Origin: Octopus vulgaris
Taxonomy: Eukaryota
Direction: 5' to 3'
DNA length: 64,000 nt
Assembly: GCA_951406725.2 (NCBI GenBank)
Contig: OX597835.1
Location: 42,842,001 to 42,906,000 of the forward strand
A program made the position numbers and the translations under genes. Below the pieces are notes generated by a model. The model was not told the DNA's origin. It did no database searches and worked only from the letters and a program-made list of their open reading frames with translations. This document shows, in pieces, positions 18,099 through 18,206 of the stretch (its first letter is position 1; each line of letters begins with the position of its first letter).

Positions 18099-18206
18099 GT
18101 AAGGAATGCTTGAATGGTAAAAATGATTGTTCAAATGTGTTCCCATGTGGTAACCATGCTCTCTGCTTCACCGACGGAAAATTTTACTGCATTGAACCCA
18201 TCATAG
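18099..18206 (+). CDS. Gene 1 exon 2: 6-Cys module A, CKECLNGKNDCSNVFPCGNHALCFTDGKFYCIEPII
   Basis: Strong acceptor ttttactctttctttcAG and donor G|GTAAGT; 108 nt, phase 1-1, open frame; homologous to gene 2 exons 2 and 3. Missed by the ORF track. Confidence 0.9.

Follow-up and report, generated by a model that had tools for sequence, protein, structure and literature searches.

What kind of protein module is encoded by a small, cysteine-rich exon that recurs three times in 64,000 nucleotides of Octopus vulgaris DNA? The stretch analysed here, referred to below as the window (GenBank assembly GCA_951406725.2, contig OX597835.1, positions 42,842,001 to 42,906,000 of the forward strand), had been read from its letters alone as holding three copies of an unrecognised six-cysteine domain, here called module A. 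We find that module A is part of a family of secreted proteins present in octopus and cuttlefish, which we hold to be real with near certainty. Our best explanation of what it is, to which we give a rough probability of 0.45, is a derivative of the defensin fold with a rewired disulfide, acting as the variable binding head of secreted host-defence proteins.

Module A exons and the family to which they belong

The three copies lie in two convergent genes, gene 1 on the plus strand and gene 2 on the minus strand.

18099 to 18206, plus strand: module A copy 1, spacing 2-6-5-5-7, phase 1-1 exon (sequence; orthologues P0001 and P0004)
49698 to 49814, minus strand: module A copy 2, spacing 2-6-6-7-7, with a terminal T that completes Cys1 of copy 3 (spliced contigs X2, X6 and X9)
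46417 to 46659, minus strand: module A copy 3, spacing 2-6-6-8-7, followed by a 42-residue Thr/Pro stalk (19 Thr, 12 Pro) (spliced contigs spanning the joints on either side)

The three exons do lie where the sequence-only reading had placed them, each bounded by AG and GT in phase 1-1, with strong acceptors and GTAAGT donors, and both the cysteine spacings and the small shared motifs that it listed are correct for these window copies. Its description of a six-cysteine domain encoded by an exon needs amendment: the six-cysteine module is real, but each exon itself holds only five cysteines. Cys1 is a split codon, in which the T that ends the upstream exon is joined to GT or GC, and cysteine results at all three junctions. 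A six-frame scan of the window for the six-cysteine pattern gave no true match in any genomic frame. Cys1 of copy 1 is retained in the database models from O. sinensis and O. bimaculoides, and the joint that creates Cys1 of copy 3 is present in spliced contigs from three of the four runs.

A five-cysteine pattern drawn from the copies occurred three times in the window, and was found neither in 400 kb of flanking sequence nor in 30 block shuffles. This count is circular, since the pattern was derived from the copies themselves, and a leave-one-gene-out test was therefore added. In that test all 12 module A copies of the family outscored every one of 200 cysteine-fixed shuffles, indicating that their likeness exceeds what the cysteines alone would give.

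The family was delineated by searching 1.84 billion representative sequences with a profile built from the three exons. The profile was shallow, its three rows lacking Cys1, and may have missed distant relatives. Five rows were obtained at E<=0.001, of which two were kept: P0001 and P0005, a protein of the cuttlefish Acanthosepion pharaonis (E 8.8e-9). The other three (P0006–P0008) were rejected as repetitive proteins that matched 14–17 profile positions without the cysteine array. Word-based protein searches found only P0001, or nothing. The cluster of P0005 also holds P0009, an unnamed assembly product that is likely from cuttlefish, which consists of a signal peptide, four A modules, a Ser/Thr/Pro stalk and a second cysteine-rich module, here called module B. 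When P0009 was used as a query against the octopus genome, a third octopus gene came to light, on contig C23.

G000:C23:43128510-43135170: third family gene (L079, L080), encoding a signal peptide, two A modules, a long stalk and module B (sequence; 3' end not defined)

The two A modules of this gene have spacings 3-6-6-8-7 and 2-6-8-6-9, its stalk is built of Pro-Glu/Lys-Pro-Thr-Thr-Thr, and its B exon encodes C-x13-C-x9-C-x12-C-x6-CC. Gene 1 encodes signal-A-B-stop (103 residues) and gene 2 signal-A-A-stalk-B (192 residues). Thus a single layout, a signal peptide, one to four A modules, in most cases a Thr/Pro/Ser stalk, and module B, recurs in three octopus genes and in the cuttlefish-like protein. 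Module A is followed by a CC-ending module B in all three octopus genes and in P0005/P0009, and a comparison of the A profiles from octopus and cuttlefish gives a probability of 98.1%.

Across the 12 copies the invariant features are the six cysteines, the six-residue gap between Cys2 and Cys3 and the Val or Ile after Cys6, while the other gaps measure 2–3, 5–8, 5–8 and 7–9 residues. Of the spacings x2, x6 and x7 that had been called fixed, only x6 is so throughout the family; x2 and x7 vary, with x3 and x9 in the third gene. Similarly, an aromatic residue after Cys5 is true of the three window copies but is not retained in every family copy. The claim of variable middle loops fared better, as the Cys3–Cys4 and Cys4–Cys5 gaps each range from 5 to 8, and the description of an exon-sized, secreted six-cysteine module without a significant Pfam match was borne out.

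Outside these 12, an A copy of P0005 lacks Cys1 at its model's junction. In the first A copy of P0005 (residues 32–34) a Gly occupies the place of Cys1 and the protein has no signal peptide, whereas P0009 has a Cys there; the first exon of P0005 is likely to have been wrongly modelled, which hints that the Cys1 codon is split in cuttlefish as well. By eye, the residue next to the presumed signal peptide cleavage point is Gln in gene 1, gene 2 and P0009, three of the four precursors, and a pyroglutamate cap is possible there. P0009 has 31 cysteines, which leaves one without a partner beyond module B that might link two chains as a dimer.

Neither the 400 kb around the window nor the 200 kb around the third gene yielded further A or B exons, and no relatives outside the coleoids were found with the shallow profile lacking Cys1. 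In single-exon searches of the octopus genome, the weak rows L002, L004, L007–L009, L069, L093, L094, L096 and L099–L101 were inspected and rejected, while L092, L095 and L097 were scored by hidden Markov model only. This genome search was insensitive, in that the P0009 query did not recover the window's own exons, and more family members may therefore exist. The database entries XP_029649447.1, XP_014775150.1, CAI9739107.1 and CAE1274490.1, which are gene 1 orthologues and the cuttlefish relative, are uncharacterised, with no domain or function assigned.

Comparison with defensins and with other small folds

Sequence comparison placed module A in no known family. Against Pfam it gave only non-significant rows (SEHBP, E 0.013–0.019; EGF_alliinase, partial, E 0.14; mucin-like rows for the stalks), and against PDB sequences no significant match. 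No Pfam row for Kazal, Kunitz, WAP, ShK or chitin-binding type 2 domains appeared for the family proteins scanned, and the earlier statement that the spacing fits none of these, nor EGF, agrees with the lack of any significant Pfam row. For PF00711, PF13841 and PF14862 module A gave no row at E<=10 (E<=1 in one scan), with HMMER filters that drop weak matches. Family searches returned no match to PF14862, and for PF10468 and PF00711 only rows at E>=0.03, mostly with stops and none in the window.

The defensin fold had not been considered for module A in the sequence-only reading. The commonest Cys2–Cys6 spacing, 6-6-8-7, is also that of cysteines one to five in the rusticalin repeat, Cx6Cx6-7Cx8Cx7CC, a repeat linked by its authors, through HHpred, to a beta-defensin-like fold (PMC6339383; this article and PMC9138766, PMC5308243, PMC7203481, PMC7551771 and PMC7693380 are cited from parts of their text or supplements). 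The 6-6-7-7 spacing of copy 2 fits that of AvBD11, Cx6Cx6Cx7Cx6CC, once the leading cysteine of the CC pair is taken away; this vicinal CC defines the trans-defensins (PMC9138766).

A predicted structure points weakly the same way. The second A copy of P0009, modelled with seven aligned rows, reached a predicted local distance difference test (pLDDT) score of 85, and four of five models scored above 81. In the model, a one-turn helix spans Cys1–Cys2, a strand of two residues precedes Cys3, and Cys5 and Cys6 lie on a long hairpin. Trans-defensins have a three-stranded antiparallel sheet. When it was compared with 48,161 chains using VIA-align, seven rows had Z>=2 and three of these were defensins: AvBD11 domain 1 (PDB 6qes), the top row (Z 2.5, root-mean-square deviation (rmsd) 3.4, 38 of 40 aligned), crocodile CpoBD13 (Z 2.4, rmsd 2.9, 36 of 38) and alpha-defensin 4 (Z 2.0, rmsd 2.3, 29 of 31). 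In a second structural look, two of four rows were alpha-defensins (HD5 and HNP1). The structure prediction and fold search that had been proposed for module A, run here on this P0009 copy, gave no confident structural match to a known family. Hence neither of the two results that were to count against novelty, a significant family match or a confident structural match, was found when looked for. The term 'unrecognised scaffold' is upheld in that no family matches, but is probably too strong, as the fold and five of the six cysteine positions point weakly to defensins.

Module B has six cysteines ending in CC and lies behind a phase-1 intron, as in trans-defensins; such an intron is common in secreted proteins generally and is weak evidence (PMC5308243). 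In a single-sequence model of the gene 1 orthologue precursor, module B formed three strands at pLDDT about 73, with fold searches swamped by the signal helix. For this whole protein, the closest cluster in the ESM Atlas includes 17% beta-defensin and 12% I68 members, at a score of 0.87, a lead only, and one most likely driven by module B.

The predicted mature chains hold 12 (gene 1) and 18 (gene 2) cysteines, and these even counts suggest three disulfides per module. If module A is set in the rusticalin register, Val or Ile would take the place of the last cysteine and the bonds would be 1-4, 2-6 and 3-5; in the AvBD11 register they would be 1-2, 3-5 and 4-6. A Cys3–Cys5 bond is common to both. 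Since CC is absent, module A could not keep the canonical 1-5, 2-4, 3-6 pattern to the letter, and if the hairpin of the model is regular, Cys5 and Cys6 would face opposite sides and could not pair with each other.

Several observations weigh against a defensin-derived module A. The six cysteines are conserved in all 12 aligned copies, as in trans-defensins, yet a vicinal CC on the last strand occurs in none of them, the last cysteine being followed by Val or Ile. The rusticalin and AvBD11 comparisons imply different registers. Module A alone had no usable ESM Atlas match, and module B had no match in Pfam or among PDB sequences. A comparison of the A and B profiles revealed no likeness, 47 of 100 shuffled controls scoring equally, and A as a recent duplicate of B was rejected on this comparison. 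As CC and likeness to B are both lacking, we do not file module A as a trans-defensin member; what we claim for it is a probable defensin-like fold. On the structural side, the confident model is that of the P0009 copy, not of a window copy, and in the gene 1 orthologue precursor module A stayed below pLDDT 50, with fold searches dominated by the signal helix. The defensin Z scores of 2.0–2.5 are far under the tool's meaningful level, a hint and no match; the other four of the seven rows were unrelated proteins of equal Z, and Foldseek on the module A model gave nothing at E<=0.001, only hairpin fragments. Finally, the sites that vary among three octopus species number 8 in A and 3 in B, an excess that, as a sign of faster change in A, is not significant (p 0.098, 0.058).

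The most serious alternative, though we think it unlikely, is that module A is an independent disulfide-hairpin scaffold, with a knottin-like or disulfide-directed-hairpin-like core, or one like that of EGF or follistatin-N (FOLN), from Cys3 to Cys6 and an N-terminal CxxC cap, its defensin resemblance being that of any small hairpin. Here, the model places Cys5 and Cys6 on a hairpin with a turn of two residues; if that hairpin is regular, they would point to opposite faces, with an aromatic residue or Leu before Cys6, a geometry that we take to be that of knottins; in the inhibitor cystine knot, cysteines pair 1-4, 2-5 and 3-6 with a threaded ring. The 5-5-7 spacing of copy 1 from Cys3 to Cys6 presumably resembles that of EGF/FOLN cores, and the partial EGF_alliinase row, the lack of likeness between the A and B profiles and the marginal defensin Z scores all suit this alternative. 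Full EGF domains, however, have a C4-x-C5 spacing, and no such EGF-type C-x-C occurs in any of the 12 copies. The constant pairing with a CC-ending module, the three defensins among seven rows at Z>=2, and the exact 6-6-8-7 match to a published beta-defensin-like repeat also speak for a defensin relationship rather than an independent scaffold. EGF/FOLN, knottin and Zn2Cys6 structures are absent from those seven rows, an absence that does not exclude them. A C-x2-C-x6-C-xn-C start and a Pro before Cys4 are shared with Zn2Cys6 clusters, and the only PDB sequence rows of the seven-row profile were LAC9 (E 0.074) and PPR1 (E 1.9), not significant, with C-x2-C-x6-C-x6-C and the conserved Pro matched and the LAC9 row confined to Cys1–Cys4. 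That the cysteines of module A, rather than forming disulfides, coordinate a metal in the manner of half a fungal Zn2Cys6 cluster is nevertheless very improbable: the second CxxC is absent from all 12 copies (Cys4–Cys5 gap 5–8 residues), signal peptides are present where such clusters would have a nuclear location, and the model ends in a long hairpin. Given secretion and the lack of that second CxxC, we regard the LAC9 match as coincidental.

Two further alternatives concern function. The proteins might be multi-headed enzyme inhibitors of digestion, haemolymph or mucus rather than microbe binders, which would be compatible with defensin ancestry. The tandem small domains of near-neutral charge, the I68 members of the nearest ESM Atlas cluster, and the build of the tick carboxypeptidase inhibitor, a two-domain, double-headed inhibitor with beta-defensin folds (PMC6339383), agree with this. 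It is countered by the long stalk between A and B in three of four layouts and by PF10468 (I68), which gave no row for any family protein scanned, and we consider it doubtful, slightly more so than an independent scaffold. That the proteins belong to salivary venom, with A and B heads that bind receptors or channels, seems improbable. Venom peptides typically have small, disulfide-rich modules of variable loops, encoded by phase-1 exons (PMC5308243), and defensin folds have been recruited into venoms, as in helofensin (PMC9138766). Against this, the same phase-1 intron is described as widespread among secreted proteins (PMC5308243), gene 1 is 90–96% identical across three species, and only three genes were found in the genome, with no local expansion in the 400 kb and 200 kb regions searched.

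On balance, we lean towards a defensin-fold ancestry for module A, while a defence-type binding role for its proteins is plausible at a little under even odds. Under this preferred explanation, module A would derive from a defensin-like fold by loss of one of the two cysteines in the terminal CC pair and gain of another near its start. Once the signal peptide is cleaved, each module would fold with three disulfides; the number of heads would be set by duplication of the symmetric phase 1-1 exon, and an O-glycosylated stalk would hold the A heads apart from module B. Several heads may then bind a target, such as a microbial surface or an enzyme, rather than lyse membranes. Target binding is the likelier of the two because the modules are neutral to acidic, with net charges of -4 to +1 for A (10 copies) and -1 to +1 for B (6 copies).

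Architecture of genes 1 and 2

The remaining features of gene 1 are as follows.

10182 to 10188, plus strand: TATA-like box, named from its sequence, with a presumed function
10261 to 10345, plus strand: exon 1, signal peptide, with a terminal T that completes Cys1 of module A (spliced model identical to P0003)
21089 to 21205, plus strand: module B copy 1, beta-defensin-like array C-x8-C-x3-C-x11-C-x4-CC (sequence; the ESM Atlas lead at 0.87 for the whole protein)
22726 to 22890, plus strand: last exon, completing the TAA stop, with AATAAA at 22739, 22854 and 22882; 3' end approximate (sequence)
24910 to 24968, plus strand: alternative last exon of P0002, used with a donor at 21178 (gene model only)

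The spliced gene 1 model is letter-for-letter identical to P0003, a predicted Octopus vulgaris protein whose record is possibly derived from the same genome and is not independent of the window. The corresponding models are 96% identical in O. sinensis and 90% in O. bimaculoides, with all twelve cysteines retained. The P0002 variant, known from the gene model alone, would lose the CC pair of module B and may be either a real isoform or a model artefact.

For gene 2, the further features are these.

63365 to 63372, minus strand: TATA-like box, named from its sequence, function presumed
63215 to 63287, minus strand: exon 1, signal peptide, with a terminal T that completes Cys1 of copy 2 (sequence; lengths of 5' contig pieces)
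43860 to 44036, minus strand: last exon, module B copy 2, C-x15-C-x4-C-x12-C-x5-CC; stop at 43893-43891, AATAAA at 43871 (sequence; spliced contigs)

Two of the three joints of gene 2 were seen in spliced contigs. The joints 49698-46659 and 46417-44036 occur in contigs from three of four runs (X2, X6 and X9, from three studies), and no gene 2 joint was seen in run X1. The RNA nature of these contigs is a guess; their joints carry canonical intron ends. The joint between the signal exon and copy 2 is suggested by unplaced 5' contig pieces of 86, 126 and 103 nt, which fit the 73-nt signal exon plus a leader. The leader would end at most 25 nt below the TATA-like box, with the 5' end of the longest contig placed at 63340. 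The gene 2 protein was not found in the protein collections searched. Six exon sites of gene 2 read differently in the window and in the contigs of X9 (organism B) and X6; three of these differences alter a residue (N76K, I166V and S182I; window 46622, 43974 and 43925), and no cysteine identity is affected.

By eye, the introns and the 21-kb gap between the convergent genes are filled by sequences like short interspersed nuclear elements, simple repeats and decayed retroelement-like fragments, the last at 28450-29660 (plus), 15986-16558 (minus) and 11665-12198 (plus). A multi-exon gene at G000:C23:43034476-43076505 (minus strand, L070–L074) lies about 52 kb from the third family gene; from their motifs we take its exons to be LDL-A-, Sushi-, EGF- and GCC2/GCC3-like.

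Known relatives and significance

Among known systems, the N-terminal repeats of the ascidian protein rusticalin (PMC6339383) are like module A in being secreted and tandem and in their Cys2–Cys6-type spacing. Compared by published pattern only, they differ in ending in CC and being fused to a peptidase, whereas module A has one terminal cysteine followed by Val or Ile and an extra cysteine 3–4 residues ahead. AvBD11 and other polydefensins (PMC9138766) likewise have a signal exon and one exon per domain, two dissimilar six-cysteine domains and long spacings; unlike the A proteins, AvBD11 is a vertebrate protein without a Thr/Pro stalk, and both its domains keep CC and the 1-5/2-4/3-6 pairing (PMC9138766). 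Big defensins (PF14862; PMC7203481) are also molluscan, two-part and secreted, with a C-terminal CC-ending domain behind a phase-1 intron, and range from anionic to cationic. Their N-terminal domain, however, is cysteine-free and hydrophobic and follows a dibasic prodomain, whereas here one to four cysteine-rich A modules come directly after the signal peptide, so that the whole protein lacks this big-defensin feature. The hydrophobic domain has been proposed to bring the defensin domain near bacteria (PMC7203481), and module A occupies the corresponding place. The Octopus big defensin listed in the supplement of PMC7203481 (Gerdol et al.) is a different, cationic sequence. In the tick carboxypeptidase inhibitor, both tandem beta-defensin-fold domains are of the canonical CC type.

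In the literature searched, which did not extend to subscription journals, we found no earlier description of the module A family, no paper giving its accessions and none using 'cephalopod' and 'polydefensin' together. Neither the shared five-residue motif nor the accessions appeared in the O. vulgaris skin mucus (PMC10138644) and ink (PMC10142993) proteome supplements, or in the part covered of the salivary gland supplement (PMC7693380), and these are not informative on tissue. According to a 2020 cuttlefish study, neither homology search nor immune challenge had led to the identification of an antimicrobial peptide in cephalopods (PMC7551771), and big defensins have been reported in cephalopod genomes (PMC7203481). 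Taken together, these results make an undescribed coleoid domain family with a new form of the defensin fold the most likely description. The fuller proposal is more tentative: a defensin fold without CC, its third disulfide made through a new N-terminal cysteine, used as a head, shuffled and variable in number, on a beta-defensin-like domain with a mucin-type stalk, and forming an undescribed coleoid family of polydefensin-type effectors, in animals for which homology searches have turned up few antimicrobial peptides.

If true, a domain that kept the fold but rewired one bond would reveal how defensins give rise to new disulfide frameworks. Trans-defensins are defined by a CC pair and a fixed disulfide pattern, and a stable, repeated, rewired domain would depart from both. 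If instead the fold is unrelated to defensins, module A would be a small lineage-restricted scaffold for which the PDB search found no structural representative. Module A is small enough for testing as a 38-residue synthetic peptide, and the family, which octopus and cuttlefish share and which protein collections cover only in part, offers a concrete set of candidate secreted effectors.
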